A DNA stretch of 63,005 bases, counting the filler, from Actinomycetota bacterium (GTDB lineage: Bacteria; Actinomycetota; Acidimicrobiia; Spongiisociales; UBA4744), in NCBI GenBank assembly GCA_013152275.1. It is 6 parts of 5 records of this genome, joined end to end, with 100 filler letters (N's around TTAATTAATTAA, not from the genome) between each part and the next. Parts side by side here need not be neighbours in the genome. Positions count along the whole stretch, not along the records: positions 15,129 to 39,481 come from JAADGS010000016.1; 5 more parts are not named here. One strand, 5' to 3'. The notes beneath the pieces are model-generated. The model did no database searches. It saw only the letters and a program-made list of their open reading frames with translations, and had not been told where the DNA came from. The position numbers were made by a program, and so were the translations under genes. Below are positions 15,029-62,048 of this stretch, piece after piece (position 1 is the stretch's first letter; each line of letters begins with the position of its first letter).

Positions 15029-15128
15029 NNNNNNNNNNNNNNNNNNNNNNNNNNNNNNNNNNNNNNNNNNNNTTAATTAATTAANNNNNNNNNNNNNNNN
15101 NNNNNNNNNNNNNNNNNNNNNNNNNNNN
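15029..15128. other. Artificial contig spacer
   Basis: N-run with central TTAATTAATTAA, 100 bp. Confidence 0.98.
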
Positions 15129-18033: not shown

Positions 18034-20384
18034 GCATTCTCGACCGCAAGCTGCGGAGAGACCTGAAGGCGAGACGAAGCCAGTTCATTGCCGTGGTGAT
18101 CACGATCGTGCTGGGGATCGTTCTCTTCGGCGGTTCGTACGACGCGTACCTGAACCTCACCGAATCGTACGACCAGATGTTTGTGATCCAAAACACGGCC
18201 GACATGACCATTTCCGGAGGCGATACGGAGGCCATCGTCGCCGCCGCGCGAAAGGTCGACGGTGTCGAGGACGTAGCCACACGATCCGTCGCGGAGGTTC
18301 CCCTCAGGATCGACGGCCACCACAAGATGCTGGGGCGACTCGTCGGGCTTCCTGGCGGAGCGCAGCCATCCATCGACAAGGTCACGGTGCTCTCCGGCAC
18401 ATACCTGAGTGGGATCGACTCCGTTTTGGTGGAACAACACATGGCCGACCACTTCAAGCTCAAAGCCGGCGACACGATCGAGGTGCTCGGCCCGCAGGGG
18501 TGGGTGAACGCTCGGGTTGCGGGTGTGGCGGCATCCGCCGAGTATCTGTGGCCTGCCCCCAGTCGCCAGCAGATCTTCCCATCGTTCGACGACTTCGGAG
18601 TCCTCTTCGTCGACCAGAACGTCTTCGCGGGGGTTCCGTCGTCCGTGGTCCGTCGAGAGGTGCTGGTCACCTACGCGTCGGGGACCGACACGGCCACCAT
18701 CGACCAGGCGCTGAAGGACGTGGCGCTCGCTCATGGTGCGACCGACGCGACACCGTTGGCGGATATTCCCTCCAACGCGGCGTTGAGCGAAGATCTGGCC
18801 GGGTTCCAGGAGATGTCGCTGATGTTCCCGCTGCTGTTCCTGGCGGCTGCCGGGATGGCGACATACGTGCTGCTCACCCGCCTCGTACTGTCCCAACGCG
18901 GCCAGATCGGTCTGTTGATGGCAAGTGGGTTCAGCAAGCGGACCATCTTCGGTCACTACCTGCGTTTCGGCCTGCTCGCCGGAGCGATCGGAGCCATCAT
19001 CGGAGCACCTCTCGGCGGGTTGCTGGGGCGTGAGATATCCAAGCTGTATACGGCGGCCATCTCGATACCAGTCACGGTGACGACCGCCCGTGTGTCGACG
19101 GCGGCGATAGGGGTCATCTTTGCCCTCGTTGCGGGTGCGCTGTCTGCGCTTGCCCCGGCGATGCGTGCCGCGAGGATCGCTCCTGCCCAGGCCATGCGGG
19201 GTCTGATTCCCTCCGGGAAGGGGGGAGCGACGTGGATCGAACGTCTGGTTCCGCCGTTGCGACGCCTCCCCGCGCGCTGGAAGTCGGTGCTACGCGGAAT
19301 CGGTCGGAATCGCAACCGGACGATATCGACGGTTGTGGGCGTCGTGCTCGCGGTGACCCTCATCCTGTCGTTCTGGGGCATGCTCGACTCGATCCAGGTG
19401 CTGATCGACCGTGAGTTCAACCAGGTCAACCGTCAAGACGCTCAGCTCTATCTGACCGCTCCGGTCACCCCGGACGTGCTTGCGCGAGTGGAGGCCGTCG
19501 GCGGTGTGGCACACGCAGAGCCGGTCACAGACGTGTCCGCCACGATTCGCGCCGGCTCAAAGCAATATCGCACGGACCTGCTGGGATTCAAACCGACGAC
19601 GAAACTCCACGGTTTCGTCGTCGACGGAAAGAATGTCGACCTGCCTTCGGACGGCGTCTTCCTCGGCTCATCGCTGAAGAGTCTGCTTGGCGTGGACGTT
19701 GGAGACGAGGTGACGATCGACGTTCCCGACCTCGGGATCACCGTGGCGGAGACGGTCGCCGGCTTCGTGAGGGAGCCGCTCGGAACCTTCGCGTACATCG
19801 CCGAGCCTCGCCTGGCCCAACTCGCCGGCACCAGTGACGTTGCGAACACGCTCTATCTGACGTTCGATCCGGGTGTCGACAGGGAAGCGTTGCGAGATCA
19901 ACTGAGTGAGCTGCCTTCGGTGGCGGCGTTCGTCGATTCGCAGGCGCTCAGGTCGATGGTGGACCAATTCATGGGACTGTTCTACGTGTTCGTCGGCATC
20001 ATGCTCGCTCTGGGCGGGATCATGGCGTTCGCGCTGATCTACAACACGATCTCGGCGAACATAGCGGAACGGGCATCCGAAGTGGCGATGATGCGCGCCG
20101 GCGGAGTGGGCCGCCGGACCATCTCGCGCATGCTCACCGCCGAGAATGTTCTGCTCACCCTCATCGGGGTGATCCCCGGGCTGATCGTCGGGTACATATT
20201 CGCCTACTACGGCGTGTCGATGTATTCGAGCGACATGTTCAAGTGGGATCTGTATATCCGGCCGACGACGTATGTGTTCACGGTGCTCGCCATCTTGCTG
20301 GCGGCGCTGCTGTCGCAACGACCGATCCTGCGGGAGGTGCAGCGTATCGATGTGGCGACCGTGGTGCGGGAACGATCGCTCTAA
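18027..20384 (+). CDS. FtsX-like ABC permease (duplicated domain)
   Basis: 785 aa with two periplasmic plus transmembrane repeats; coupled to the ATPase. Confidence 0.85.
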   Translation: MVSILDRKLRRDLKARRSQFIAVVITIVLGIVLFGGSYDAYLNLTESYDQMFVIQNTADMTISGGDTEAIVAAARKVDGVEDVATRSVAEVPLRIDGHHKMLGRLVGLPGGAQPSIDKVTVLSGTYLSGIDSVLVEQHMADHFKLKAGDTIEVLGPQGWVNARVAGVAASAEYLWPAPSRQQIFPSFDDFGVLFVDQNVFAGVPSSVVRREVLVTYASGTDTATIDQALKDVALAHGATDATPLADIPSNAALSEDLAGFQEMSLMFPLLFLAAAGMATYVLLTRLVLSQRGQIGLLMASGFSKRTIFGHYLRFGLLAGAIGAIIGAPLGGLLGREISKLYTAAISIPVTVTTARVSTAAIGVIFALVAGALSALAPAMRAARIAPAQAMRGLIPSGKGGATWIERLVPPLRRLPARWKSVLRGIGRNRNRTISTVVGVVLAVTLILSFWGMLDSIQVLIDREFNQVNRQDAQLYLTAPVTPDVLARVEAVGGVAHAEPVTDVSATIRAGSKQYRTDLLGFKPTTKLHGFVVDGKNVDLPSDGVFLGSSLKSLLGVDVGDEVTIDVPDLGITVAETVAGFVREPLGTFAYIAEPRLAQLAGTSDVANTLYLTFDPGVDREALRDQLSELPSVAAFVDSQALRSMVDQFMGLFYVFVGIMLALGGIMAFALIYNTISANIAERASEVAMMRAGGVGRRTISRMLTAENVLLTLIGVIPGLIVGYIFAYYGVSMYSSDMFKWDLYIRPTTYVFTVLAILLAALLSQRPILREVQRIDVATVVRERSL

Positions 20385-20385
20385 A

Positions 20386-20440
20386 CCCGTTCTCGTGACG
20401 CTTCGGTGGAACTATCCGGCCCAACCGTCACGAGAACGGG
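20386..20440. repeat. Palindromic repeat, family A
   Basis: CCCGTTCTCGTGACG-N25-CGTCACGAGAACGGG. Confidence 0.85.
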
Positions 20441-20484
20441 GGAGACTCTGCCACTTCCCCGCGCGGGATCAGTCGCGTTGGCGC

Positions 20485-21669
20485 TCATGTATGGCGGTGT
20501 CTCCATGCGCGCGTCTCGACATCGGACGGAGGCCCTGGCATCGCCGGCGGTTCGCGGTGCACGATCTCTGATCGGGCCCTGCGATTTCGCATGAGTTGCC
20601 GTACCCGGGAGGTGAGGATTCGTACCGGGTAGGGGCCTCCGGTGTCCGGGTGGCGGAAATCGAGATGGGACCTGGGCGGGAACAGGTTCGTGGCTATCCA
20701 GCGGAGCGCTTCCACTGTCCGGTCGGTGGTAAGAGCCGGCATCAGCAGGTAGCCGCGTCGCGCATACTCCGCAGTACTCGTCTCACCGAGAAGACGCGTC
20801 TTGGGACGCCACAGATAATCCCAGGCCCGCGCTCGCCATCCTTGCGGTCGAGGTATGTCCTCGGTGGGCAATCCCAGGGTGGAGAGCACAGCCGCGAGCG
20901 ACTTGTTGACGATGACCTCGAGGCCTTCGACCCGGGCCAGATCCTGAACGGCGTGCAGATCGGGCTCGGAGGAAACGATCCGAGCGATTTCCGCGTACGC
21001 AAGGAGGTAACGGAACCGGTCTCTGTTGATGTTGACGAGTCGATGAACGAGAGCGGTCTCGGAGTCGAGCACTCTGACGGATCCCCCAGAAGGGGTGTCG
21101 AGTTGCTGCGTCCGCTCCCACACCAGCCTGCTGGTGCGGGACGGGATGCCGAGCTTGAAGAGATCGAAGTGGACATCGATGCTCATGTCGTCCACCTCGA
21201 GTCCAAGCGCCTGAACCAGGCCGTAACGAAACAGTTCCTGGAAATGCCCGATGAGGGGGTGGTCCGGTGCGATGCAGGCCGCAATGTCGTCGGCTCGATC
21301 GAGTTCTGCAGGATCGATGAGAATATCGACGTCATGGCAGGGTCGCTCTCCGATCCGGTCGAACCAGCGAGCCTCGGCGGTGACCCCTTTGAACGCCGCG
21401 ATCTGAACACCGATTCCGGCGAGCCTGTCCGTCACATCCTCGAGAGCCTCCCAAAGATGCCGGTGGTGAGCTTCGTTCCGCAGAGTCAGCATTGCCAGAG
21501 TCCGTTCCCACTGCTCGTCGCCCTTCAGCTCCCCTGCTTCGGCCCGAGCCCAGAGCAGTCCGGTCATTCGATGCTCCACCGCCGACTCGAGGAGGCGGTC
21601 CGGATCTTCAACAACCGGCAGCGGTCGTCCGGCTGCGAGTTCGATGAGAGCAGGATGGGGGCGGGCCAT
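20485..21669 (-). CDS. Nucleotidyltransferase family protein (NTP_transf_5-like)
   Basis: FKG...R..HDVDIL and IDVH motifs; lies downstream of the PqqD gene. Confidence 0.8.
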   Translation of the reverse strand: MARPHPALIELAAGRPLPVVEDPDRLLESAVEHRMTGLLWARAEAGELKGDEQWERTLAMLTLRNEAHHRHLWEALEDVTDRLAGIGVQIAAFKGVTAEARWFDRIGERPCHDVDILIDPAELDRADDIAACIAPDHPLIGHFQELFRYGLVQALGLEVDDMSIDVHFDLFKLGIPSRTSRLVWERTQQLDTPSGGSVRVLDSETALVHRLVNINRDRFRYLLAYAEIARIVSSEPDLHAVQDLARVEGLEVIVNKSLAAVLSTLGLPTEDIPRPQGWRARAWDYLWRPKTRLLGETSTAEYARRGYLLMPALTTDRTVEALRWIATNLFPPRSHLDFRHPDTGGPYPVRILTSRVRQLMRNRRARSEIVHREPPAMPGPPSDVETRAWRHRHT

Positions 21670-21682
21670 GTGGGGTACGTCG

Positions 21683-21967
21683 CTATTCGGCTGTCGTGTC
21701 GATCTCGATGAGATCTCGTGTCGCCAGGTCCTCCAGGAACGAAGAGACATCATCTCCGAGGTCGGCGGGGGCGTCGCTCACGGCGGCGCGTGTTGCATCG
21801 GTCAGCTCGCCCACCGTCTGGCCATCGATGAGAGACCAGATCAGCGCTCCTATCGAATTGAACCCGTGGTAGCTGCCGGTCTCCAGGTTGAGGAGGACAC
21901 CTCCCTCCTGGGTGTCGCGATATGCAGCGTGGGGGGATTGCCGCACAATTGCCGTTTCAGGGATCAT
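21683..21967 (-). CDS. PqqD-family RiPP recognition element (lasso B1-like)
   Basis: 94 aa; VLLNLETGSYHGFNSIGALIWSLIDG...DVSSFLEDL. Confidence 0.9.
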   Translation of the reverse strand: MIPETAIVRQSPHAAYRDTQEGGVLLNLETGSYHGFNSIGALIWSLIDGQTVGELTDATRAAVSDAPADLGDDVSSFLEDLATRDLIEIDTTAE

Positions 21968-21988
21968 CAGGTCTCCTTCCGAAGATCG

Positions 21989-22843
21989 TCAGTACTGTCC
22001 AAAGGTCCCACGCCTGCGCTCACGTCGCAGAGCCAGATTCAGTGCGATGGCCCCGATGGTCAGGGAAAGCGCCGCGGCTCCGACGAAGATCCCGACATGA
22101 GGGGTGACTGCCCCCCATCCGGCACCGCCGAGGAGCGCCTGTCGCGTACCGTCGAACGCGAGAGCGATCGGATTCGCCCGGGCCAGGTCCTGTATCCAGC
22201 CAGGGAGCAGATCGACGGGGAAGTACGCGCCCGAGGAGAAGTTCAACGCAAGAGCGCCAAGGTTGAGAATCGTTGCACCTCTCCGGAACGTCATCACGCC
22301 TGCGGCGCTCACCATTCCGAGCCCCCACACGAACGGGATGAACAGGAGCAGGATGGCCAGTGAGGGCAGGATGCCCGATGGTGCGATTCCGATGTTGAAC
22401 AAGATCGACACGATGCCGATGAACAGGGCGGTACGTATCGGGACATACACGAGGTCGTAGACGGCAAGCCCGAATTGGAGGGTCATCGGATGTGTCGGAG
22501 TCATGAACAGTGAATCGAGGGTGCCCATCAGCTGCTCGGAGCGCATGGCCGTTGCAACCCGATCGAGCCCGAGCGTGAGAAACGCGCCCAGAGCGATACC
22601 GATCGTCACGAAAGCCAGATAGCTTGCACGCTGGCCGCCGTACTCGGGGATCTTGCTCGGATCGACCATCAACCCGATGAAGTAGAACATCACGATCTGC
22701 ACCGCAAGCCCCACTGCGTCGCCGAAGAAGGCCATCCGGTAGCTCCACGCGGTGAGAAAATCTCGCCGTATGAACGCAGGGAGCTTTCTCACTTCGAGGA
22801 GGAATCTGGCTCCCACCGCAGGGACCGTGTCAGGAGAGGTCAT
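21989..22843 (-). CDS. ABC-2 type exporter permease
   Basis: RDFLTAWSYR, SGAYFPVDLLPGW, multiple transmembrane segments. Confidence 0.85.
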   Translation of the reverse strand: MTSPDTVPAVGARFLLEVRKLPAFIRRDFLTAWSYRMAFFGDAVGLAVQIVMFYFIGLMVDPSKIPEYGGQRASYLAFVTIGIALGAFLTLGLDRVATAMRSEQLMGTLDSLFMTPTHPMTLQFGLAVYDLVYVPIRTALFIGIVSILFNIGIAPSGILPSLAILLLFIPFVWGLGMVSAAGVMTFRRGATILNLGALALNFSSGAYFPVDLLPGWIQDLARANPIALAFDGTRQALLGGAGWGAVTPHVGIFVGAAALSLTIGAIALNLALRRERRRGTFGQY

Positions 22844-23789
22844 CGGTACTCTCAGCGGTGAGTGTGAGGAACGCTTCTTCGATCTCGGGTCGGGCCTCGC
22901 GGCAGGCCAACACGGGGAGCCCGGCGGACGCCAGCGAGCCGATGACGTCACCAAGTACCGTTCCGTTCCTGAGTCGAAGGAGATACTCCTCTCTTGCGGC
23001 CCCTTCGAGAGGGACGAGTGTCCCAAACGAAGCGATCATCTGCTCGAGATCATCCGCAGAAGAGGTGTGCTCGCCGAGACGAATGACGTACGAACGTTCG
23101 TTCGCCAACGCCATCAACTGATCGACTGATCCCTGGAAGCGCACTCCGGTCGTGCCGAGCACGGTCACCGTGTCGGCGAGGCCGGGAAGCTCGTCGAGGC
23201 GGTGTGTAGCCCAGATGACACCGGCTCCTCGCCCGGCGGCGTCCTTCGCCACCTGGTGGATCTTCGCGGCACCACTCGGATCGAGTTCGTGGGTCGGTTC
23301 ATCGAACAGGAGGAGTTGTGGATCGGTGAGAAGAGCTCTGGCAATGGCGACACGCTTCTGCATGCCGTGCGAGTACAAGCCCGAGCGAATATGCATGGCA
23401 TCGTCGAGCCCGACTTCCCGCATGAGCTCGCCGGCTCGCCGGGTGGCATCACGCCGGTTCATGCCGTGCAGACGGGCGAAGAATACGAGGTTCTCGTAGC
23501 CGGAGATGCGCAGATAGAGTGACCTGTCTCCGGAGGGTACCCACCCGATACGCTCGCGCACCCATGCGGAACGTGGGCTCCCACCGAGGATACTCACGGT
23601 TCCTCTGCTTGGCTCGATCAGACCTGCGATCGTTCGCAGCAGTGTGGTCTTGCCGACCCCGTTGGGCCCGATCAGGGCATGGATCTCTCCGGGTGCCGTG
23701 TCGAAACTGACGTCACGGAGAATGGTCCTGGACTTGAACCTACGCCATATAGATCGAACCTCGACCACTGGAGTCGAGGTTCGAAACAT
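22830..23789 (-). CDS. ABC exporter ATP-binding protein
   Basis: GPNGVGKTT, YSHGMQKRV, DEPT. Confidence 0.9.
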   Translation of the reverse strand: MFRTSTPVVEVRSIWRRFKSRTILRDVSFDTAPGEIHALIGPNGVGKTTLLRTIAGLIEPSRGTVSILGGSPRSAWVRERIGWVPSGDRSLYLRISGYENLVFFARLHGMNRRDATRRAGELMREVGLDDAMHIRSGLYSHGMQKRVAIARALLTDPQLLLFDEPTHELDPSGAAKIHQVAKDAAGRGAGVIWATHRLDELPGLADTVTVLGTTGVRFQGSVDQLMALANERSYVIRLGEHTSSADDLEQMIASFGTLVPLEGAAREEYLLRLRNGTVLGDVIGSLASAGLPVLACREARPEIEEAFLTLTAESTDDLS

Positions 23790-23831
23790 TGCAGCACACT
23801 CTCCTGAGGGAAAGGTTTCTATTCCGTTTCC

Positions 23832-23954
23832 TTAGGAGTGGTGGCAACCGTCGTACTGTTGGAACGTAAGCAGTCTCGGCTTACAGTCCCCTGGCATGAA
23901 CGTGTGTTCCGCGATCGAACCGAAGTCCTTGATCTGAGGGGTCTCGTACTTCAC
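23832..23954 (-). CDS. RiPP precursor peptide with a lasso-type leader, 40 aa: MKYETPQIKDFGSIAEHTFMPGDCKPRLLTFQQYDGCHHS
   Basis: Hand-translated and absent from the ORF track; GGGAGG RBS 7 nt before GTG; YxxPx(I)xxxGxxxxxT leader motif; first gene of the ABC-RRE-NTase operon. Confidence 0.88.
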   Translation of the reverse strand: MKYETPQIKDFGSIAEHTFMPGDCKPRLLTFQQYDGCHHS

Positions 23955-23997
23955 CTTGCAGCCTCCCATTGCCCGCATAGCTTCCCTCTGCCCGGGC

Positions 23998-24027
23998 AGG
24001 CTATCATTGCCACTGTGGGTGCGTCAA
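23998..24027 (-). promoter_or_regulatory. Putative promoter of the precursor operon: TTGACG-N18-TAGCCT with extended TG
   Basis: Read on the minus strand, ending 43 nt upstream of the precursor start. Confidence 0.45.
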
Positions 24028-24447
24028 GGACCACCATCATGTCACGCAGAGTGTTTAGCCCGGTTCGTCGGTGAGACGCAAAGGCTGCCGATCGGGATCA
24101 CCGGGAGGTCACGGTGGGCGCGATTGCCGTGTCGTCGGGAGTCGGCGGCCCGATCGTGATTCTCCAGGTGGCCGTTGACTTGTCGCCGGCTCCCTGTCTG
24201 GGAGAGGTAGTGCAAACCGTCACTGTGAGGTGTTGTCGGTGCGTAGCGAATGACGTCCCTTCGTCGATGCGCCAGGGAGGGCCAACTACCCTGGACTCCG
24301 GAAATGGATTCTCGATACCGACTTCCGGAGGAAAGGGGTCGACCGTGATCTCGTGGCGCAGCAGCTCGAGAGTGAGGAGTCCTCTGTGAAGGGTCGGCAC
24401 ACGCTCAACTTTCTGGTATCTGTTCCCGCATTCCTCGACTTGTGGCG

Positions 24448-25380
24448 ATGACCGACACGCAAACATCAGCGCCTTCGAGCGGGACGTGTTTCGGGTACGA
24501 GGCTCACTCCGATATCCCCTTTCGGTTCCTTCGCGACGGCGTGGGTGAGCCGCTTGAGGTCATGTTCCACTCCGAAGAAGGCCCGGAACCGGGCGAGCGG
24601 CTCGTTGTGGACTGGAAACGGCGGCCGGACAAGTCCTTCTACGGTCGGGTCTATCAGAACGATCAGGGACGGTATCGGCTGTGGACGAGTGACGCCGGCT
24701 GGTTCCTGGTCGATCCCCGGAAGAGGACGATAGCCATTTCCGAACATGGCGACTCGTTGAGGCGAGAGGTCCGGCTCTGGACGACGCCGATGCTGCTGCT
24801 GATGGTCGGTCGGGGCGACCTGCCGTTGCACGCCTCCGCCGTGGAGGTGGACGGTGGGGCGGTCCTGTTCGGCGGGCCGAGCCAGTTCGGTAAGACGACA
24901 CTCGCGGCGGCATTCCATACCGCAGGTTTCCGAGTGCTGGCCGAGGACATCACCTGCGCGCAGGTTGGGGATGATGTGGCAGTGATACCTGGCCCGGCGC
25001 TCCTCAGGGTTCGCCATGATGTCGCAGATCGCTTCGCGACTTCGAGTGTCGCCGATGCGGGTCAGGACGATGAACGCAGATTCCTGGCCCTCTCCGAGGA
25101 ATCTCGTGGCACTTGTGATCCGTTGCCCCTCAAAGGGATCGTGCTGCTCAAGAGCGATGCCCCGGCCATCCGCCTGGATCGGCGCGTGGGGACTCGATCC
25201 ATCAGCGATCTCTGGGAGCTTGCCTTTCGACTGCCGGGCGATGAGGAGATCGAGCGGGTCTTCAACGGCATCACCGATCTCGCGGATCGGGTGCCCGTGT
25301 GGGATCTCGTGCGTCCTTTGGATGTCGAGCAGCTCCTGCCGACGGTGGAGCGAGTCGTCGAGAAGGTGAGAGGGTCGTGA
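24448..25380 (+). CDS. HPr-kinase-like P-loop kinase (lasso-cluster kinase type)
   Basis: [17 protein letters not shown] Walker A, VLAEDI. Confidence 0.8.
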
Positions 25381-25793
25381 GTTCGAACGAATCCCCCGGA
25401 TTGCCCATGGCAGAGAAGGTGAGGCTGTTCGTTCGAATATGGGTGTTGGCCGGGCTGTCCGCGACCGCATCGAAACGGCGCGCCCTTCCCGACCTCATGG
25501 AGAGCTATCGGATCGCGGGCACGGTCGGAAGCCATTCGACCTACGCTCCCCGCAAGCTGAGCAGAGCGGTCACCCGCAGTCTCCGTGTTGGTCGTTGGCA
25601 GCCGCGGTGCCTGATCAAGGCGATGGTGCTCTACCGGCTGATGCGAGAACAGGGCGAAGAAGTCGAACTCGTGATCGGCCTTCCACAGAATCCGAAGGAT
25701 CACATCGCCCATGCCTGGGTCGAGCTGCATGGTGTCGACATCGGTCCCGCACCCGGTCGTGGAGGCCACGAGGAGATCGCGCGCTACGGCTGA
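25377..25793 (+). CDS. Lasso B2-type transglutaminase-like leader peptidase
   Basis: [10 protein letters not shown]...LVIG...AHAWVE (catalytic Cys and His). Confidence 0.88.
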
Positions 25794-25804
25794 TCCCCCC
25801 TCAA

Positions 25805-25859
25805 CCCGTTTTCGTGACGGTTCGGCGGGATTATCCGGCTCCAGCGTCACGAGAACGGG
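25805..25859. repeat. Palindromic repeat, family A
   Basis: CCCGTTTTCGTGACG...CGTCACGAGAACGGG. Confidence 0.85.
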
Positions 25860-25882
25860 GGGATTGGGCCTACGATGCCCCG

Positions 25883-27844
25883 ATGCCTTTGCCAGAGGAC
25901 CCAGCCGATCGTGCCCAGACCGCCCTGGAGCGGGCGGTTGCCGAGAAGCCCGGTGGTCACCGGCGAGCCGGTCAGGTCGAGATGGCTCGTGCCGTCGCCG
26001 AGGCGATCGAGCAAGGTTCCCATCTCATCTGTGAGGCCGGTCCGGGTACCGGCAAGTCGTTCGGCTACATGATTCCGGCGATCGTGTCCGGACAGAAGGT
26101 GATCGTCGCCACCGCCACCAAGAGCCTCCAGGACCAACTCGCCAAGAAGGACCTGCCGTTCCTCGCCGAGGTCATGGCCGGCCTCGATATCACGTTCAGC
26201 TGGGCCGTCGTGAAGGGCCGCCAGAACTACCTCTGCAAGTCCCGGCTCGTGGAACGTCTCGAGAAAGAGGGTGTTGTCGCGCAGCAGATCTCCCTCGAAG
26301 GACTCGACTACGAGCTTCCCGAGGGCTTGCGCATGCTGGCCGAATGGGCCGACACGCATCCGACGGGGGACCGAGACGATCTTCCCGCCCAGCCGGCGGA
26401 GGGCCTTTGGGAGAGCGTCTCGGTGACCGGCATGGAGTGCCCCGGCCGCGACGAATGCCCGCAGGCGGGCGACTGCTTCGCCATGGCCGCCCTCGACGCC
26501 GCCGCAGACGCCGACATCGTCATCGTCAACCATCACCTGTACGGCAACGACCTCGCCCTCGGCGGCGGTGTCGTGCTGCCCGAACACGATGTGCTGATCG
26601 TGGACGAGGCCCATCGCCTCGAGGACACGATGGCCTCGGCGCTGGGGATCGAGCTCGCCGAAGGACGTTTCTGGCAGGTGCAACGCTCTGCAGGCTCGTA
26701 CCTGCGGGCCCAGTCATCGCGCTCCAAGGCAGACAAGATCCTCCGACCGCTCGCCGACCAGACCAAACGGGTGCAGCAGTCTCTCGATCGCACCGACGTC
26801 GGTCGGGTCGAGGAAGCCGGCGCCCTCGGCGCCGCGTTCTCCGCAGCCGCTTCCAGCTTGGCCGCGGTGACGAAGGCGATTCGTTCCTCGGAACCGACCT
26901 CACCTGGCGCGCTCGGAGCTCGCGCACGGGTACTGCGGTTGGCGGCACACCTTGCCGGCGACGTCGGGATGGCCGTCGAACCGCCTGACGGATATGTCTC
27001 CTGGATCGAGCGTGACTCGGACCGCACCGCCTACCGGATTGCGCCGGTCGAGGTCGGGCCGCTACTCGCCGAGCAGCTCCTCGGCCGTGTTCCGGTGATC
27101 CTGACGAGCGCCACGCTGTCGGTCGGAGGATCACTCTTGCCGCTCGCCGAAAGGCTCGGCTTCGAAACGGCAGACCAATCCGGCCCGCTGCGGTACAGGG
27201 CGTTGCAGGTCGAGTCGCCGTTCGACTACCGGGCACAGGGGCGCGTGTACGTCGCGGCCAGACTTCCCGAGCCTCGCTCTCCCGACTACCAGGCCCGAGC
27301 GCTGACGGAACTCGAGGAGCTGCTGCTGGCGTCCGGGGGCCGAGCGCTGATTCTGACGACCAGCTACCGGATGCTGACGATCATCAGCGAACATCTCGCT
27401 GACGAGGTTCCCTTCGAGATCCTCACGCAGGGCGATCTGCCGAAGCTGCGGCTCATCGAGCGTTTCGAGGAGGAGGAGACGTCCGTCCTCGTCGCCACGA
27501 TGGGATTCTGGGAGGGGTTGGACATTCCCGGCCGGGCCCTCGAACTGGTCGTCTTGGACAAGCTCCCGTTTCCTCGTCCCGACGAACCGCTCTGGCAGGC
27601 CCGGCGCGAAGCAGCGGAGGCGGCGGGTCGGTCCGCGTTCATGACCGTCGACCTGCCCCGCGCGGCGATGTTGCTGGCCCAGGGGGCGGGGCGTCTGATC
27701 CGCACGACCAGCGACCATGGGGTCGTGGCGATCCTCGACTCGCGGCTGTTCAAGCGCCGTTACGGGAGGGTGTTGCTGCGCTCGCTGCCACCGATGCCGC
27801 AGACGACGTCATTGAAGACGGTCGAGGCGTTTCTTCGTCGGTGA
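25883..27844 (+). CDS. dinG: DinG/YoaA-family ATP-dependent helicase
   Basis: EAGPGTGKS, KGRQNYLC, VNHHL, DEAH, QGAGRLIR. Confidence 0.88.
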   Translation: MPLPEDPADRAQTALERAVAEKPGGHRRAGQVEMARAVAEAIEQGSHLICEAGPGTGKSFGYMIPAIVSGQKVIVATATKSLQDQLAKKDLPFLAEVMAGLDITFSWAVVKGRQNYLCKSRLVERLEKEGVVAQQISLEGLDYELPEGLRMLAEWADTHPTGDRDDLPAQPAEGLWESVSVTGMECPGRDECPQAGDCFAMAALDAAADADIVIVNHHLYGNDLALGGGVVLPEHDVLIVDEAHRLEDTMASALGIELAEGRFWQVQRSAGSYLRAQSSRSKADKILRPLADQTKRVQQSLDRTDVGRVEEAGALGAAFSAAASSLAAVTKAIRSSEPTSPGALGARARVLRLAAHLAGDVGMAVEPPDGYVSWIERDSDRTAYRIAPVEVGPLLAEQLLGRVPVILTSATLSVGGSLLPLAERLGFETADQSGPLRYRALQVESPFDYRAQGRVYVAARLPEPRSPDYQARALTELEELLLASGGRALILTTSYRMLTIISEHLADEVPFEILTQGDLPKLRLIERFEEEETSVLVATMGFWEGLDIPGRALELVVLDKLPFPRPDEPLWQARREAAEAAGRSAFMTVDLPRAAMLLAQGAGRLIRTTSDHGVVAILDSRLFKRRYGRVLLRSLPPMPQTTSLKTVEAFLRR

Positions 27845-32767: not shown

Positions 32768-32834
32768 TTTCTTCCCGTTCTCGTGACGGTTGAGCGGGAC
32801 TATCCGGGCGAAGCGTCACGAGAACGGGAAGAAA
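32768..32834. repeat. Palindromic repeat, family A (extended arms)
   Basis: TTTCTTCCCGTTCTCGTGACG...CGTCACGAGAACGGGAAGAAA. Confidence 0.85.
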
Positions 32835-32897
32835 CGGGGATGTGTGGAGTTTGATGAGCCTGCTGACTACTCTCCGTGGCAGATCCTCAGGGGGACC

Positions 32898-34730
32898 GTG
32901 AGCGAAAACACACTGACCGAGCCGACGCTGTTCAGCGCCGCCTGGCGCTATCGGTGGCTGGTGGTTGCCACGACGGTGTTGGCGCTGGCGCTGGGCATTG
33001 TGTTCGTGACGCTCAATCCTGCGAAAACCGTCTACACGGCGCGGGCGTCGATGGTCGTCCAGGCCACGGCCGGGGGCCTGGATCTCGGAACATCGGGAAG
33101 TCCGCAGCGGTTCGTTGCAAACCAGGTGGAGATCCTCAGGTCGGCGGCGGTCTCCGATCTCGCGAGTCGGATCGCCGAGCAGGAGGATCCGCCGATCGCT
33201 CTGGCGCCGGAGGACATCGCCGGCGGCCTGCAGGTCGAGAGCTCTTCGAGCAGCGACCTGATCGATGTCGTCTTCAGCGCAGTGGACGATCCTGCCGTGG
33301 CCGTCGGGGGTGCCAACGCGGTGGTCGCGGCCTACAAGCAACTCGTGACTTCGGAGAAGACCGCAGTGACGAGCGCCGCCCTCCAACGGATCGACGCTCA
33401 ACTGGCGACGCTCGATGAACGGGCGCAGACGATCGCAGGTCAGATCGCGGAGAAACTGGACGAGGACACGGCGCTGATAGATCTGCGGAAGCAGTATGAA
33501 GATGCGGTCGTCGAGATCGTATCGCTCCAAGGCGAAGCCCAGACGGCCGACGCCACTCGACTCGCCGAGATCCGTGCTCGCCTCGGCGACCTGCGCAACC
33601 TGATCGCAACCTACCGGAGCATCCGGAGTATCGGCCGAGATGATCCCGTGCTCGATGAGCTCCAGGCCGAACAGGAGCAGATCCTCGCGCGCAGAGACGC
33701 CTTGTTGGAGCGTCGCGACACGATATCGATCGACGTCGAGTTGTCTCCCGACGTCGTCGCGTTCTCTTCACCCGCACAAGTGGCGATGCCGTCGCCCGAC
33801 TCGGGACCGGGGCGTGTACTGGCGGTCGCAATCATGATGGGTCTGCTCGGTGGAGTTGGTCTCGCCTACTTGTTCGCTTCCCGGCTGCACGTGTTTCATG
33901 ATCGCATGGAGCCGCAGATGATTCTCGGCGCGCCGCTGCTTGCCGACATACCCGATTTCACGCAGGAAGGCCTCAGGACGCTCCTGCCCGTTCGGGACGA
34001 GCCACGTTCGGCATCGGCGGAGGCGTTCCGATTTGCTGCAGCCTCGTTGGAATTGAAGATGACAAGGCAGAATGCGAAGTCGCTCGTGATCATCTCCCCG
34101 ACACTCGGTGCGGGCAAGAGCACGGTGCTGGCGAATGCGGCACTTGCGGCGGCCAGGCAAGGAAACCGAGTGCTCCTCATCGATGCGGATTTCGGAAACC
34201 AGGCACTTACGGAGCTCTTGGCCGGTGATGAAGGCACGCTGGAACCCGGTTTGACGGAGGTCGTGGGCGAGGGCCTTTCCCTCGATCGGGCCATCCGCAA
34301 GATCGAGGTTGGGCCTGATCTGTTGCTCTCACTTCTGAGCAGGGGCCGACAGCCGGTCGCTGCGGCGGATCTGCTCAGGTCCAGCGCGGCTCGATCACTT
34401 TTCGACACCGCCAAGGAGGAGTACGACCTGGTGCTCGTCGACGCTCCGCCACTGCTCCAGGTCGCCTACGCGAGCACGCTGGCCGGCCTCGTCGATACCG
34501 CTCTGGTACTCGTGGCTCACGGGGGCTCGACCTCCCAGCTCGAAGAGGCGAGGAGTCGTCTGAGCCTCATCGGAGTGCCGATCCTCGGCTATGTCTACAA
34601 CGGGTCGCCGCTCCGGAGAGAGATGACGGTTTCGGAAGGCTCGACCGCCGACGTGCTCGGAGATATGGCTGGGCCGAGAAGCAGGGGCGAGAAGAGCAAG
34701 TCCGGTTTCGGCAAGAGGCGGCAGCGCTGA
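32898..34730 (+). CDS. Polysaccharide co-polymerase / BY-kinase (Wzc-like)
   Basis: Two transmembrane segments flanking a coiled coil; GAGKS, LLIDAD, VDAPP. Confidence 0.8.
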   Translation: MSENTLTEPTLFSAAWRYRWLVVATTVLALALGIVFVTLNPAKTVYTARASMVVQATAGGLDLGTSGSPQRFVANQVEILRSAAVSDLASRIAEQEDPPIALAPEDIAGGLQVESSSSSDLIDVVFSAVDDPAVAVGGANAVVAAYKQLVTSEKTAVTSAALQRIDAQLATLDERAQTIAGQIAEKLDEDTALIDLRKQYEDAVVEIVSLQGEAQTADATRLAEIRARLGDLRNLIATYRSIRSIGRDDPVLDELQAEQEQILARRDALLERRDTISIDVELSPDVVAFSSPAQVAMPSPDSGPGRVLAVAIMMGLLGGVGLAYLFASRLHVFHDRMEPQMILGAPLLADIPDFTQEGLRTLLPVRDEPRSASAEAFRFAAASLELKMTRQNAKSLVIISPTLGAGKSTVLANAALAAARQGNRVLLIDADFGNQALTELLAGDEGTLEPGLTEVVGEGLSLDRAIRKIEVGPDLLLSLLSRGRQPVAAADLLRSSAARSLFDTAKEEYDLVLVDAPPLLQVAYASTLAGLVDTALVLVAHGGSTSQLEEARSRLSLIGVPILGYVYNGSPLRREMTVSEGSTADVLGDMAGPRSRGEKSKSGFGKRRQR

Positions 34731-34749
34731 AACTCCTCGTTGTCATGGA

Positions 34750-35928
34750 GTGGCTGTGGATCCGTTGACGGTGCTGCAAATCCACAATCGCTACCGGGAA
34801 GCCGGGGGCGAAGACGTGGTCACATCGAAGGAACGCGCTCTCCTCAGAGAGGCCGGCCACGAAGTGATCGACTACCAGGTCGAGAATCCGCGCGGCCCTG
34901 TCGCTGCAACCGCGAGCTTGCTCGTATCGCCGTGGAATCCGATGTCGGCCCGGCGTGTCGGTGACGCCGTCAGACGGCATCGTCCCGACGTAGCCCACAT
35001 TCACAACACGTGGTGGGCGCTGTCTCCTTCGATCGTGCGCTCCCTCTCGAAGGCCGGGGTTCCGACCGTCATGACGTTGCACAACTACCGGCTCGTTTGT
35101 GCCAACGGGAAGCTGTTTCGCGACGGTGAGCCGTGTGAGGACTGTGTGGGCACGCATCCATGGCGGGCGGTCGGTCACGGGTGTTATCGGGGTTCGGTGC
35201 CGGCGTCGATCATGGCTGCGGCCGCCATCGAGCTGCCCCGGAGGCTGCATGCGTGGCAGGGGGTGGATCTCTTTCTGCCACTCACCGACTTTGCTCGCGA
35301 GCGGTTCATCGCAGGTGGGCTGTCGTCCGACAAGCTGTGGGTCAAGCCGAACTTCGTGGACGATCCCGGACCGCGCCGCGTGCGTCCGTCCGAGAGCGGC
35401 GTGGTGCTGTTCGTCGGGAGACTGAGCGCCGAGAAGGGGATCGAGGTCCTGCTCGACGCCTGGCGAAACGCTGCGCCGCGGCGTCTCGAGCTTGTCGTTG
35501 TGGGCGATGGTCCGCTCCGGCAGGCCCTCGAAGCCTCTCCGCCTGCGGGTGTGCGGTTCCTCGGCCGGCAGCCCGTCGACCAGGTCCGCGAACTCATGCT
35601 CGGTGCACGCGCCATGGCGTTCCCTTCTCTCTGGTTCGAGGGTCAGCCGATGGTGTTGCTCGAGGCACTGGCCGCGGGCGTGCCGCTCGTTGTGTCGGCG
35701 CTAGGCGGGATTCCCGACACGGTCGCCGATGGGAGGGCGGCTCTCGCAGTGCCGGCGGGTGATCGATCTGCTTGGGCCGCGGCGTTGGGTCGGCTGGCCG
35801 GCGACGATTGGCTCGATGCGGCGAGCGGGTATGCGCGACGCGTGTTCGAGTCCCGCTACAGCCCGCACCTTGCCCTGGATGCGCTCGAGGAGGCGTACAG
35901 GAGGGCGATGGGGGATCGGGGACACTGA
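34750..35928 (+). CDS. Glycosyltransferase family 4
   Basis: HNRYREAGGED, FVGRLSAEKG, EGQPMVLLEA. Confidence 0.88.
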   Translation: MAVDPLTVLQIHNRYREAGGEDVVTSKERALLREAGHEVIDYQVENPRGPVAATASLLVSPWNPMSARRVGDAVRRHRPDVAHIHNTWWALSPSIVRSLSKAGVPTVMTLHNYRLVCANGKLFRDGEPCEDCVGTHPWRAVGHGCYRGSVPASIMAAAAIELPRRLHAWQGVDLFLPLTDFARERFIAGGLSSDKLWVKPNFVDDPGPRRVRPSESGVVLFVGRLSAEKGIEVLLDAWRNAAPRRLELVVVGDGPLRQALEASPPAGVRFLGRQPVDQVRELMLGARAMAFPSLWFEGQPMVLLEALAAGVPLVVSALGGIPDTVADGRAALAVPAGDRSAWAAALGRLAGDDWLDAASGYARRVFESRYSPHLALDALEEAYRRAMGDRGH

Positions 35929-35929
35929 G

Positions 35930-36730
35930 TCAGGTCGTCGTGTCGCGTGCCAATCTGGCGCGCACGATGTCTCTGGCGAGGAGTGCCAGGTACGCCGGGT
36001 TGTTGAACAGATATCGGCGCCAAAGCCTGCGGGGGTGCAGGGAGAGGCGGTGAAGCCACTCCAGACCGGCCGACTGCATCCAGGCAGGAGAGCGCGGCGT
36101 CGTTCCGGCGATGAAGTCGAACGCCGCTCCGACACCGAGGAGCGCGACGCCGGGCACCAGGTGGCGGATGCCGCGCATCCACAGTTCCTGTTTCGGCATA
36201 CCCAAGCCCACCCAGACGAGGTCGGCCCCGGATTCCTTGATCTGCTCTGCGGCGATCCGGACGTCGTCATCGGTGGGGGTTCGAAACGGTGGTGAAAAGC
36301 TTCCGGCGATGCTCACTCCGGGAGCAATTCTCCGGGTGGCCTCGACCAGCTTGCCGAGGGTCTCCTCGGTGCTTCCGTAGAAGAAGTGACTCCACCCGTG
36401 CACGACACCGTGCTGGAGGGCGCGCTGCATGAACGATGGTCCGTCGACTCTGTCTTGCCCGGTACGCCCGGCCGCGCGGAGCCCCCACACGACAGGCATC
36501 CCGTCGGGGGTCGCTATGTCTGCGTCGAGCAGTGCGGAGGCGACCGACGGATCGCTGCGAGCCGTCATTACCGAATGTACGTTGCAGAAGGCGACGACCG
36601 TTGCCTTGTCCGTTGGGCGGTTCTGCAGCAGGTCGAGGACTTCGTCGCCGGAGGTGGCCGAGATCGGTGTCCCGACCACGCTGATCCGATCGGGCCAGAC
36701 GGTGCTCACGGGCGCCGGTGCTCCTGCCAC
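35930..36730 (-). CDS. WecB/TagA/CpsF-family glycosyltransferase
   Basis: [25 protein letters not shown]. Confidence 0.9.
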
Positions 36731-37644
36731 CAGGCGATGGTCTTGCGCAGCCCCTCCTCGAGGTCGACCTGAGCTTCGAATCCGAAGTACTCCTTGGCGC
36801 GCGTGGTATCCAACATCCGTCGGGGCTGACCGTCCGGCTTGGTGGCGTCCCAGTGGACCTCTCCCTCGTAGCCTGTCAGGTTGGCGATCAGAGCCACGAG
36901 ATCGCGAATGATGATCTCACGGCCGCTACCGATGTTGACCGGCTCGGCGCCGTCGTACGCCTCGGTGGCAAGGACGATCGCGCGCGCCGCGTCTTCCACG
37001 TAGAGGAACTCCCGGCCGGCAGATCCGGTTCCCCACACGTCGACATGCGGCGCTCCGGTTTCGCGGGCGTCGACGAACTTGCGGATGAGTGCCGGAATGA
37101 CATGGCTGGTCTCCGGATCGAAGTTGTCTCCGGGTCCGTAGAGGTTCACGGGAAGCAGGTAGACGCCGTTGAAGCCGTACTGATCTCTGTATGCCTGCAA
37201 CATGACGAGGAGTGATTTCTTGGCGACGCCATACGGAGCGTTGGTCTCCTCCGGGTAGCCGTTCCACAGGTCCTCCTCTTTGAACGGCACCGGTGTGTAT
37301 TTCGGATAGGCGCAGACGGTCCCGAGCTGCACGAGTTTCTCGACGCCGACCCGGCGGCTCTCCTCGATCACGTTGATGCCCATGGCCGCGTTGGCGTAGA
37401 AGTAGCGTCCCGGGTTGGCCCGGTTGGCACCGATGCCACCCACTTCTGCCGCAAGATGCAACACGACGTCGGGTCGAACGTCGGTCATGAGATCCCGAAC
37501 GGTCTGTTGATCGGTCAGGTCATGGTCGGCGTGGCGGGGAACCATCAGGTCGATGGGGCGGCGGCGGAGAAGGTCACAGATGTACGAGCCCAGGAAACCG
37601 GCACCGCCGGTCACCATGACCCGCTTGCCTTTCAGTTCGGTCAC
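36706..37644 (-). CDS. fcl: GDP-L-fucose synthase
   Basis: [40 protein letters not shown]. Confidence 0.92.
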
Positions 37645-38684
37645 TCGGGTCTCCCGTTGCGCCACTCGATCTGCTTGAGGCCCGCGTCGACCAGGGTCCG
37701 CTCCTGCTTGGCCAACTCGAGGTCCGAGTCGATCATCATGCGCACCAGGTCCGGGAATTCCACCTTCGGTTCCCAACCGAGAACTCGGCGAGCTTTGGAG
37801 GCGTCGCCCTGGAGGATGTCGACTTCGGCCGGTCGCAGGTATCGCTCGTCGATACGCACGTGATCACGAAAATCGAGGTCGAGCAGCCCGAATGCCGCCT
37901 CGCAGAATTCACGTACCGAATGCCGTTCGCCCGTGGCGATCACATAGTCGTCGGGAAGATCCTGCTGGAGCATCAGCCACATGGCCTCCACGAAGTCCCC
38001 GGCGAATCCCCAGTCGCGCTCTGCGTCGAGATTGCCGAGGAAGACGTAGTCCTGAAGCCCGAGCTTGATGCGGGTCGCCGCCCGGGTGATCTTGCGGGTC
38101 ACGAACGTCTCGCCCCTTCTGGGCGACTCGTGATTGAAGAGAATCCCGTTGCCGGCGAAGAGGCCGTACGCCTCGCGGTAGTTGACCGTCTGCCAGAACG
38201 AGTACACCTTCGCGACGCCGTACGGGCTCCGCGGATGAAACGGCGTTCGTTCTGTCTGCGGGGTTTCCGCAACCTTCCCGAACATCTCGGATGAGGACGC
38301 CTGGTAGAAGCGCACCGGTGATCCGAGCTGCCGGATGGCTTCCAGCAGCCGCAGTGTGCCTATCGCATCGATGTCTGCCGTGTAGATGGGGTTCTTGAAG
38401 GAGACGCCCACGTGGGACTGGGCGCCGAGGTTGTAGATTTCGGTCGGTTCGATGTGCTGAAGGAGATGGACGAGGCTGTTGCCGTCGGCCAGGTCGCCGT
38501 AATGCAGGAACAGGTTCGCCGATTCGCTGTGAGGGTCGATGTAGAGATGGTCGATCCGTTCGGTTGCGAATGTGCTCGAACGGCGGATCAGCCCGTGTAC
38601 TTCGTACCCGCGACCAAGCAGGAACTCGGTGAGGTACGATCCGTCCTGTCCGGTGATTCCGGTGATGAGCGCACGCCCCAGCAA
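37641..38684 (-). CDS. gmd: GDP-mannose 4,6-dehydratase
   Basis: [43 protein letters not shown] before TTG. Confidence 0.95.
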
Positions 38685-39093
38685 AACATACCTCCCACCA
38701 CGCGTCGTTTTCAACCACTTAGCGTAGTTCGTGGTGGGGGAGGGCGCAACGGTTGATCAGTCGATCCGAGTTGGGCTCTGCTCCACGGTTCTTGTAGAGC
38801 TCGATCGGCACGCCTCGTCGTGGGAGAAGCACTCTCCGTCGATCGTCTGTCTCCTCGATCTCGGCTCCGACAGGCACATGTTTCCGATTCCGACGAGACC
38901 GGCCTATGGTGAGCCTGCGCACATCATCACTGGGAAGGGGCGGCTGTGCGGCTCAAGCGAGGGGGCACGCATGGTGCCGGTTCCCGTCACTACAAACCCA
39001 AGCATCGATCCAACACCGGAATCGGGTTCGATGCTCTGCGTCTGAAGATCGTTGGAGGTCGACGACGGATCGGCTTGTGGCCGGTTCACAGAT

Positions 39094-59353: not shown

Positions 59354-59561
59354 GGGCCAGCAGGCTCACCTCATTCACGGTGAACTGCCGATCCCGGCCG
59401 GCCCGCCCGGCAGTCTCGGCGTCGGACACCATCGAGAACGTCCAGAGCTTGTCGTCCCGCTCGCTCATCCGTTCGGCGAGTTCCGCCTGCGTCCAGCCTC
59501 GCTCGCGTCGGAGCCTGCGCATGTTCCAGGCGATGACCGCATTCGGCGTGAGACCGTCCAT
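59354..59561 (-). CDS. XRE-family HTH regulator (3'-truncated)
   Basis: NMRRLRRERGWTQAELAERM. Confidence 0.75.
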
Positions 59562-59660
59562 GGCTCCGAACGTATCACCGGACAGTGACAGATTCTGCAG
59601 GATGACCAATACGGCGGCTCAGGGGTGGACCCCGTCGTCGGGCCGTCGTACGGTCGAAGC

Positions 59661-59890
59661 CATGACCAGCAACACAACTCCGAGAAAACGACCGAGCATG
59701 CTCGTGGCGTGCGGTCAGGGAGAGCGGCTCCTCACGGTCGAGGAGGTCGCCGAATGGCTCGGCGGCACGATCTACGCCTGGCGGTACCGCAGCACCGGGC
59801 CGGCCAGCTACAAGGTCGGCCGCCACGTCCGGTTCCGCCAAGCCGACGTCGAGCAGTGGCTCGAGGCTCAGCGCACCGAACCGGTACAGC
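59661..59890 (+). pseudogene. Excisionase/AlpA-like HTH protein, apparently damaged
   Basis: LLTVEEVAEWLGGTIYAWRY...GRHVRFRQADVEQWLE; short between LG and TIY; no stop at the expected position. Confidence 0.55.
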
Positions 59891-60125
59891 CGTCAATGCT
59901 TCGTCAACTCCTGGGCGTGTCGCCGGTCCGGAAGGTGGCCCGAACCGTGGTCCCACCGCATGCCGGACTTCGGTCCACAACCGACTCCCCATTGAGCTTG
60001 CCACGCCGGGGTTCCGCCACCCCTGGTGCGCAAGGCGCAAATCCCCGACCCCGCCCCCGCATCGTGCGTCGCCGGGGTCGGGGATTGGGGGTGTCGGAGA
60101 TGAAGGTCAGAGGGAGGGGGAGACG

Positions 60126-61999: not shown

Positions 62000-62048
62000 T
62001 CACGACACCGCTCTACCTGCTCTGATACTCGAGCTTCCGAATGTCCTT

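Follow-up and report, generated by a model that had tools for sequence, protein, structure and literature searches.

The described systems closest to the present locus are the phosphorylated or phosphoglycosylated lasso peptides, such as paeninodin (PadeK), pseudomycoidin (PsmK/PsmN) and Bsf, whose A, B1, B2, D, K and N gene set and C-terminal Ser it shares, as far as the relevant parts of these papers describe them (PMC8498205; PMC9266682; PMC10368454). In these pathways, linear precursors are reported to be phosphorylated on their C-terminal Ser by PadeK, ThcoK and PsmK, and the resulting phosphate to receive a hexose from PsmN (PMC8498205; PMC9266682). The other close system is the clusters for linear polyphosphorylated peptides (LPPs) of Bacillota (lppA-K-B-S-D-N; Popov et al., 2026, PMC13381572), which, according to the sections of that paper used here, have in common with our locus a discrete RRE, a YxxP leader, an HprK-like kinase, an NTP transferase, an exporter and the lack of a cyclase. 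There, a linear phosphopeptide is produced without a cyclase, and deletion of the nucleotidyltransferase gene is reported to give no detectable change (PMC13381572).

Could a lasso-type pathway drop its class-defining enzyme and remain under selection? The actinobacterial locus described here provides sequence evidence that it can. By analogy with the pathways above, we consider it fairly likely that a lasso-descended RiPP pathway lost its macrolactam cyclase and kept working, and that its product would be a disulfide-looped, Ser21-phosphorylated non-lasso peptide.

The precursor gene and its neighbourhood

The window is a 63,005-nt stretch of DNA in which contigs are joined, with N runs near 15085 and 56020. 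The locus is located on contig C86 of the genome (G000), which occupies positions 15129-39481, and genes outside 15129-39481 are not cluster neighbours. Among the latter is a block at 59380-62768 that we take to be mobile-element-like, presumably encoding an excisionase-like HTH protein, a replication-relaxation-type protein, a VirD4/TraD-like ATPase and a metallopeptidase. The precursor gene is located between a minus-strand operon with the RRE, ABC and nucleotidyltransferase genes and a divergent plus-strand operon with the kinase and B2 genes. The features are as follows, where dN/dS refers to G000 versus its sister species, G001.

20485..21669, minus: NTP_transf_5 nucleotidyltransferase-like protein, start MARPHP (PF14907, E 2e-21; KG..R..DxD motif; dN/dS 0.29)
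21683..21967, minus: stand-alone RRE (B1, PqqD fold; PF05402 above cut-off; dN/dS 0.09)
21989..22843, minus: ABC-2 exporter permease (PF01061; dN/dS 0.09)
22830..23789, minus: ABC-2 exporter ATPase (PF00005; dN/dS 0.22)
23832..23954, minus: precursor peptide gene, 40 aa (translation; orthologue in G001)
23954-23898, minus: precursor leader, codons 1-19
23897-23835, minus: precursor core, codons 20-40
23885-23883, minus: codon of core Cys5
23846-23844, minus: codon of core Cys18
23837-23835, minus: codon of the terminal core residue, Ser21
23962..23967 (23967-23962), minus: Shine-Dalgarno GGGAGG, 7 nt ahead of the GTG start, same in G001
24442..25380, plus: HprK/PEPCK-like peptide kinase, probable ATG at 24448 (TIGR04352, E 1e-7, under cut-off; dN/dS 0.22)
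25377..25793, plus: lasso-type B2 leader cysteine peptidase (PF13471 above cut-off; NF033537, 52 bits against a cut-off of 33; dN/dS 0.27)

The preliminary description had placed a short ORF with GGGAGG-N7-GTG here without stating its strand. This was borne out: the minus strand, read from 23954 to 23832, encodes (M)KYETPQIKDFGSIAEHTF|MPGDCKPRLLTFQQYDGCHHS*, and the plus strand of 23832..23954 gives an unrelated translation. The gene had also been called unannotated, which holds in that it is nameless, but a public gene call (P0003) does cover the same precursor as a nameless 48-aa protein starting from an upstream ATG. With the leader YETPQIKDFGSIAEHTF cut after F19, the residues Y3/P6/I8/G12/T18 fall at -17/-14/-12/-8/-2, and this register matches that of Y, P, L and T in lasso leaders as reported in the relevant part of PMC10368454. 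Consequently, the RRE-binding lasso-type leader YxxPxL..G.....T(-2) and the cleavage after T-x (here T-F), leaving a 21-aa core, are both supported as first proposed.

The six frames of the 3.07-Mb genome contain only two instances of the leader pattern with a stop codon no more than 45 aa further on, of which only the one at 23832..23954 is gene-like; therefore, the precursor is not a chance ORF. A sequencing artefact is ruled out by the orthologue in a second species. The lasso precursor family NF033528 (NCBIfam) gave a weak match to residues 2-22 (E 0.07, under cut-off), and a single-sequence search with the precursor returned only itself and the protein P0004. The precursor gene is thus confirmed as real, with a canonical lasso leader. 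The predicted complex of RRE, B2 and precursor scored 0.80, and 0.64 with B2 replaced, and these values are given no weight here.

The core has Cys at positions 5 and 18 and Gly at position 3. Ser21 is terminal and is its sole Ser, while Thr11 and Tyr15 are further hydroxyls. Positions 7-9, where a lasso core has Asp/Glu, are P7-R8-L9 in G000 and P-N-H in G001, which supports the lack of a canonical lasso ring, as had been stated. An alternative cleavage restoring an Asp at 7-9, which had been named as a possible refutation, needs a cut after core residue 7, 8 or 9; it clashes with the leader register and is unconserved in G001.

Kinase, B2 and the NTP_transf_5 protein all retain their catalytic motifs. 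The kinase has the His, the GKT P-loop and E-D, the last of which is common across the family, and the B2 motifs PRC, AHAW and the downstream Asp (catalytic Cys/His/Asp) are intact, as is the NTP_transf_5 gene in G001. A kinase scan of genome contigs gave one locus. No match to a signal peptidase family was found among the 16 proteins scanned around the cluster, and the promoter and terminator scans of 20200-26000 predicted 0 and 0. The region 32790-38714, which begins about 7 kb from B2, encodes surface-polysaccharide functions: Wzz/Wzc-like, GT4 and WecG proteins and, judging by sequence, a GDP-mannose dehydratase and GDP-fucose synthase pair.

A family with Lys...Asp-x-Glu-x-Ser cores

The G000 precursor conforms to the leader Y-E-x-P-x-[IV]-x-D-[FYLH]-G-S-I-x-[DE]-H-T-[FY] of a larger family, here termed the parent family, whose precursor profile matches it with E 6e-16 (note that the sequence itself is in the alignment). 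The profile, built from 28 sequences, returned 497 protein clusters, and the profile-positive genomes are 10 of 20 in the taxonomic family, 22 of 401 in the order and 4 of 401 in the phylum, G000 being counted each time. A leader-only DNA pattern gave 77 metagenome stretches and 4 of 401 class genomes, and the latter count indicates a lower sensitivity than that of the profile. In the loci L035-L111, L125, L126 and L165-L175, the family leader, YExPx[IV]xD[FY]GSIx[DE]HT[FY], is joined to a Lys...Asp-x3/4-Glu-(x)-Ser core and occurs beside genes for a full-length AsnB-like cyclase, kinase, B2, RRE and ABC-2, making this a candidate class of Lys-Asp side-chain macrolactams.

The conserved features were summarized from 37 distinct cores with an intact full-length cyclase, a set that mixes leader-selected and profile-selected loci. 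Among them, 35 show Lys...Asp/Glu(+6 to +10)-x3/4-Glu-(x)-Ser, the misses being one core with an offset of 11 and one apparently frameshifted. The Cys number is even in all 37; 13 have Asp/Glu at 7-9, and none of the 37 has this together with a G/S/A/C start. The motif is also present in 17 of 18 cores at partial-cyclase loci (the miss is G578, L166) and in 12 of 41 without a visible cyclase, where contig ends may hide the gene. The best 120 profile matches, which are biased towards the Lys...Asp-Glu-Ser motif, have Asp/Glu at 7-9 in only 6 cases, and most of them begin the core with Thr or Gln.

The parent cyclases are about 590 aa long and carry the ATP motif (L)S-x-G-x-DS (SGGxDS-type) in 25 of 25 aligned sequences; an N-terminal catalytic Cys is absent in the starts seen. 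By fold, an AlphaFold model (pLDDT 91.5) resembles TsnB9, beta-lactam synthetase and AsnB, and the scores against the lasso cyclase family NF033535 are 72-110 bits, where the cut-off is 525. It is slightly favoured that the Lys side chain would serve as the nucleophile in this family, so that a lasso-cyclase homolog would form a Lys-to-Asp macrolactam.

A second cut after the Lys, which would free a Gly or Ser N-terminus and so allow a conventional lasso ring to form (G1-D9 or S1-D8), is a rather unlikely alternative that concerns the parent family only. The best 120 matches do look compatible with it: in 97 of them the Lys is followed by Gly and in 11 by Ser, 109 show a Lys-Asp offset of 9 and 7 an offset of 8, and Val or Thr precedes Lys in 75. 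In addition, leaders with Ile/Val(-2) exist according to the relevant part of PMC10368454. However, H-T-F already places T(-2) in the leader register; the Lys of these matches occupies core positions 7-15; some offsets are 6 or 10, outside the 7-9 ring rule; and no second protease was seen in the related loci, which were screened for known components. The 160 cores with Asp...Glu-Ser all have the Lys, with no Lys-less or Arg-substituted case. Their Cys count is 0 in 28, 2 in 117 and 4 in 15, and the 21 that have a Cys before the Lys would all become odd if that Cys were dropped. E-C-S is found in 20 of these 21 and in none of the other 139, although the 21 amount to about five related sequence types and are not independent, so that a p-value overstates the association. 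In P0124, both Cys of the linker-tail pair are lost together. The Cys pairing indicates retention of the residues ahead of the Lys and therefore favours the Lys-nucleophile model over a second cut; it is also possible that this stretch is cut off yet held by the disulfide.

Compared with the parent core, the G000 core keeps Lys6...Asp16, at an offset of 10 that is within the family range, while Glu-x-Ser and the cyclase are absent. As judged from these features, the G000 peptide is a derived offshoot of the parent family. The preliminary description had suggested that a 14-residue Cys5-Cys18 disulfide could substitute for the lasso ring. The Cys pair itself is conserved in G001 and P0004, but the notion of replacement is unsupported, since the pair pre-exists in cyclase-bearing relatives, as the E-C-S of the linker-Cys cores shows. 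As the descendant of the parent linker-to-tail disulfide, Cys5-Cys18 would not have arisen to replace a ring.

The parent family is apparently undescribed. Our literature search found no description of the Lys...Asp-x-Glu-x-Ser family or of a B2-type cyclase-less kinase cluster, though the same search also overlooked the LPP paper. In the available part of a 2026 review of interlocked peptides (PMC13352647), ‘lysine’ and ‘N-terminal extension’ are absent. Searching the ESM Atlas with a parent precursor returned nameless nearest clusters with scores below 0.9.

The cyclase remnant and selection on the other genes

Between the precursor and the kinase of G000, traces of a cyclase gene could be recognized. 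These, together with the only other candidate in the genome, are as follows.

24284..24451, plus: fossil of an AsnB-like cyclase, last ~54 codons (24284-24445), whose TGA overlaps the kinase ATG (ATGA); dN/dS 0.90
24108..24260, plus: tentative 5' cyclase remnant, in a frame other than that of the 3' remnant (tblastn match with E 0.16 to the first 60 residues of the L028 cyclase)
L122:433-2223 (G000 contig C70, 3.4 kb): distant AsnB-like protein, 597 aa, outside the cyclase family

The fossil is 41% identical to residues 540-593 of the L023 cyclase by tblastn (E 3e-6 genome-wide), and positions 536-591 of a cyclase profile built from 25 family cyclases (A3) match the remnant in both G000 and G001. 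The tentative 5' remnant gave no significant match with this profile. A full ~590-aa cyclase occupies the same place, between precursor and kinase in the same gene order, in L030/L168 and L170, and the gene order with the cyclase is partly matched in L080, L126 and L169. G001 shares the deletion and lacks a further 53 nt; two independent recent deletions in G000 and G001 are also possible. Based on profile A3, no family cyclase was found in G000 beyond the remnant and the distant C70 gene (48 bits), and only the remnant was found in G001; PF00733 gave only short N-terminal matches in the two genomes, three of them in G000. It should be noted that the assemblies are 100% (G000) and 99% (G001) complete.

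The dN/dS of the tentative 5' remnant is 0.99 over 35 codons, and the C-terminal remnant has a dN of 0.22 (95% CI 0.13-0.33) against 0.06-0.11 for the kinase. For comparison, dN/dS is 0.12 in the precursor leader and 0.17 in the flanking FtsX permease gene. These estimates come from one genome pair, with remnants of 53 and 35 codons, and part of the 53-codon remnant may serve as the ribosome-binding region of the kinase. As the remnants appear neutral and the other genes under purifying selection, the cyclase would have been non-functional for about the whole G000/G001 divergence while the rest stayed functional. In both genomes, the cyclase is lost by internal deletion, with the remaining genes staying intact. 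The kinase, B2 and nucleotidyltransferase values (0.22-0.29) are somewhat higher than that of the flanking gene, so partial relaxation is possible.

The syntenic precursor orthologue of G001 keeps the leader (54 of 57 nt identical), both Cys and the terminal Ser, which is the short-ORF conservation that had been called for. The last 6 core codons are identical at 17 of 18 nt, and both Cys are kept via synonymous codon changes. In contrast, core codons 1-13 reach at best 14 of 39 identical nt, versus 128 of 159 in the neutral remnant (p 1.6e-7), which indicates that the middle of the core diverges faster than neutral DNA. The G001 core retains Cys5, Pro7 and the terminal DGCHHS, and has no Lys. 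P0004, compared as a protein, has a near-identical leader, Cys5 and a terminal C-Q-S-S (C-x-x-S). The fixed elements of the three are thus two Cys plus a terminal Ser, and the loop of 12-15 residues that they enclose changes fast.

Then, could the pathway be dead or dying, with the remaining genes drifting towards loss after the cyclase? The cyclase is indeed a pseudogene, the core lacks the family E-x-S (and in G001 also the Lys), and G002, the third genome of the genus (95% complete), has no kinase or precursor match. We regard this as improbable, because the other six genes are intact in G000 and G001 alike, with dN/dS of 0.09-0.29 against 0.9-1.0 for the remnants, and because the leader and, by synonymous change, the two Cys are conserved as described above.

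Still more doubtful is that the peptide is lactamised, between Asp16 and either Lys6 or the N-terminus, by an enzyme whose gene lies outside the cluster. The retained Lys6...Asp16 and the ~597-aa AsnB-like protein encoded on C70 would suit it, but this protein scores 48 bits where true family members score 319-784, it has no match in G001, whose core lacks the Lys, and in a Cys-anchored alignment the family ring Asp would correspond to Gln13 of G000. The C70 gene is therefore rejected as the missing cyclase.

Besides loss by deletion in G000/G001, cyclase-less lineages include the genus g3 and possibly G578, where the cyclase appears frameshifted. In g3, the kinase, the RRE and one or two precursors are found beside leuS, without B2 or cyclase at the locus (L024:8233-10239, L025, L026, L027:9321-11304 and L029), and the cores are of a Gly-Gly-Ser-Gly type with no Lys...Asp motif. 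With the cyclase profile, G004, G015 and G016 (90-94% complete) had no match, G009 had one that was short and weak, and G007 carries a full cyclase at a different locus; B2 is present in two of these five, with RRE and nucleotidyltransferase genes in polysaccharide loci. In the kinase tree, G000/G001 stand apart from the g3 cyclase-less clade, each clade with 100/100 support, while the branches separating the two have weak support, and the tree does not fix which cyclase-bearing relative is nearest. At L166:1702-3711 (G578), the cyclase spans two frames and the adjoining core lacks the Lys and ends in Ser, which is possibly a third independent loss, but the split could be an assembly error.

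Several further arrangements were observed in related loci. A B2-RRE-nucleotidyltransferase triplet occurs in g3 polysaccharide biosynthesis loci (L123:6525-8476, L124:5447-7295) in which no precursor was found, the L124 nucleotidyltransferase being seemingly broken into several frames. In L027:3094-5101, L179, L180 and L182, ~380-aa AsnB-like genes with the synthetase domain only, resembling N-terminally truncated cyclases, adjoin family-leader precursors with G-x-S-type cores and no Lys. Three family-leader precursor copies are found at L177:7705-8795 (G015), with no matching maturation gene in the 16 kb covered. A kinase labelled as from a Gammaproteobacteria MAG (P0143, 84% identical) has actinobacterial relatives and probably comes from a mislabelled bin.

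Tentatively, and a little short of an even chance, G000 would be the offshoot of a large RiPP class with a Lys-Asp (+6-10) macrolactam and a free N-terminal arm, often stapled by a disulfide to a phosphorylated tail and possibly threaded, in which a lasso-cyclase homolog would link the Lys epsilon-amine to the Asp and cyclase loss would lead to decay of the Lys...Asp...Glu motif, leaving a disulfide or phospho-Ser peptide. If so, the emergence of a new type of RiPP would have been caught together with its fossil.

A candidate pathway and its place among described systems

By analogy with the paeninodin, pseudomycoidin and LPP pathways, the steps in G000 would be as follows. The RRE would bind the YxxPxI leader, and the HprK-like kinase, assisted by the RRE, would (poly)phosphorylate Ser21; a nucleotide or sugar may then be attached to this phosphate by the NTP_transf_5 protein. 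B2 would then cut after Thr(-2)-Phe(-1), the ABC-2 transporter would export the 21-mer, and Cys5 and Cys18 would oxidise to close a 14-residue loop, giving a product without isopeptide ring or thread. The presence of both a kinase and a nucleotidyltransferase makes the phosphorylation of Ser21 the likely main modification. However, the Ser of the parent family is internal (E-x-S; only 27 of the best 120 end in Ser), and thus the kinase may act on a residue other than the terminal Ser. The fast-changing loop would fit a signal, recognition or antagonistic role, which is a guess.

That metal binding by the Cys and His of C-H-H-S is the main function, with the kinase as a bystander, is as improbable as lactamisation elsewhere: the identical DGCHHS of G000 and G001 speaks for it, but His-His is not constant, being replaced in the C-Q-S-S of P0004, kinase and nucleotidyltransferase are under purifying selection, and the even Cys count in 160 of 160 family cores is what disulfides predict. 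The metal-binding suggestion of the preliminary description is accordingly weak; its leader, cleavage site, missing ring and disulfide stand, while the cyclase deletion and the kinase and nucleotidyltransferase had been missed.

Comparison with lasso systems gives a divided picture. The YxxPx leader with Thr(-2), the RRE (B1) and the B2 cysteine peptidase are present, while only a 54-codon remnant of the macrolactam cyclase is left and Asp/Glu at core 7-9 is absent. With the kinases of the phosphorylated lasso peptides, as the relevant passages describe them, the G000 kinase shares a His-Lys-acid-acid motif, the acidic pair being E-D in G000. In contrast to those lassos, G000 has no cyclase, no Asp/Glu at 7-9, an N-terminal Met and no ring or thread. 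If the candidate pathway operates, what kinase and nucleotidyltransferase produce would be of use even where no knot is formed, a point relevant to the role of phosphorylated lasso peptides.

The parent family is probably of greater interest than the G000 locus itself. Its cyclases share length (~590 aa) and ATP motif with lasso cyclases (NF033535) and AsnB, but would act on substrates without the canonical acceptor and with an internal Lys...Asp. If the Lys side chain is used, this would be a new macrocyclase chemistry, breaking the rule that lasso cyclases need an N-terminal amine. A RiPP isopeptide via a Lys side chain is also reported, in the parts of the papers cited, for lariocidin B and gelatinamin A (PMC11451635; PMC12070363); there, the bond is associated with a clostripain-like peptidase and joins Lys to the C-terminal carboxyl atop a normal lasso ring, unlike a cyclase-made Lys-Asp link. 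Phospeptin (PMC9259500) is likewise a phosphorylated RiPP, di-phosphorylated and from an uncultured lineage, but the part of that paper cited here names one modifying enzyme, EmbM, and Dhb-forming (Thr) sites, and makes no mention of RRE, B2 or HprK lasso machinery.

The LPPs resemble the G000 locus in gene content. RRE, HprK-like kinase, NTP transferase and exporter (here ABC-2) occur without a cyclase in G000 too, and the LPP and paeninodin clusters, like that of G000, are near polysaccharide genes. The products are alike as non-lasso phosphopeptides, that of G000 as predicted from its genes. The LPPs have, as stated in the relevant part of PMC13381572, a SpI/SipW-like signal peptidase, an MsbA-like pump, phosphorylation at Ser3 and the leader YxxPxVLxHQxIxFETxxS; the G000 locus lacks the leader consensus, a core Ser3 and, among the 16 proteins scanned, such a peptidase, and instead has B2, an ABC-2 pump, a T(-2) leader, a terminal Ser, a Cys pair, an actinobacterial host and the cyclase fossil. 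The G000 peptide would therefore work like an LPP yet not be a member. With 6-7 genes, the cluster is testable in a laboratory host, and it exemplifies concretely how a lasso cluster can turn into one for linear phosphopeptides. The origin of the LPPs is described as effectively erased by gene transfer (PMC13381572); the G000 locus is probably a B2-type source of a disulfide-looped, phosphorylated non-lasso peptide whose origin is unusually clear.
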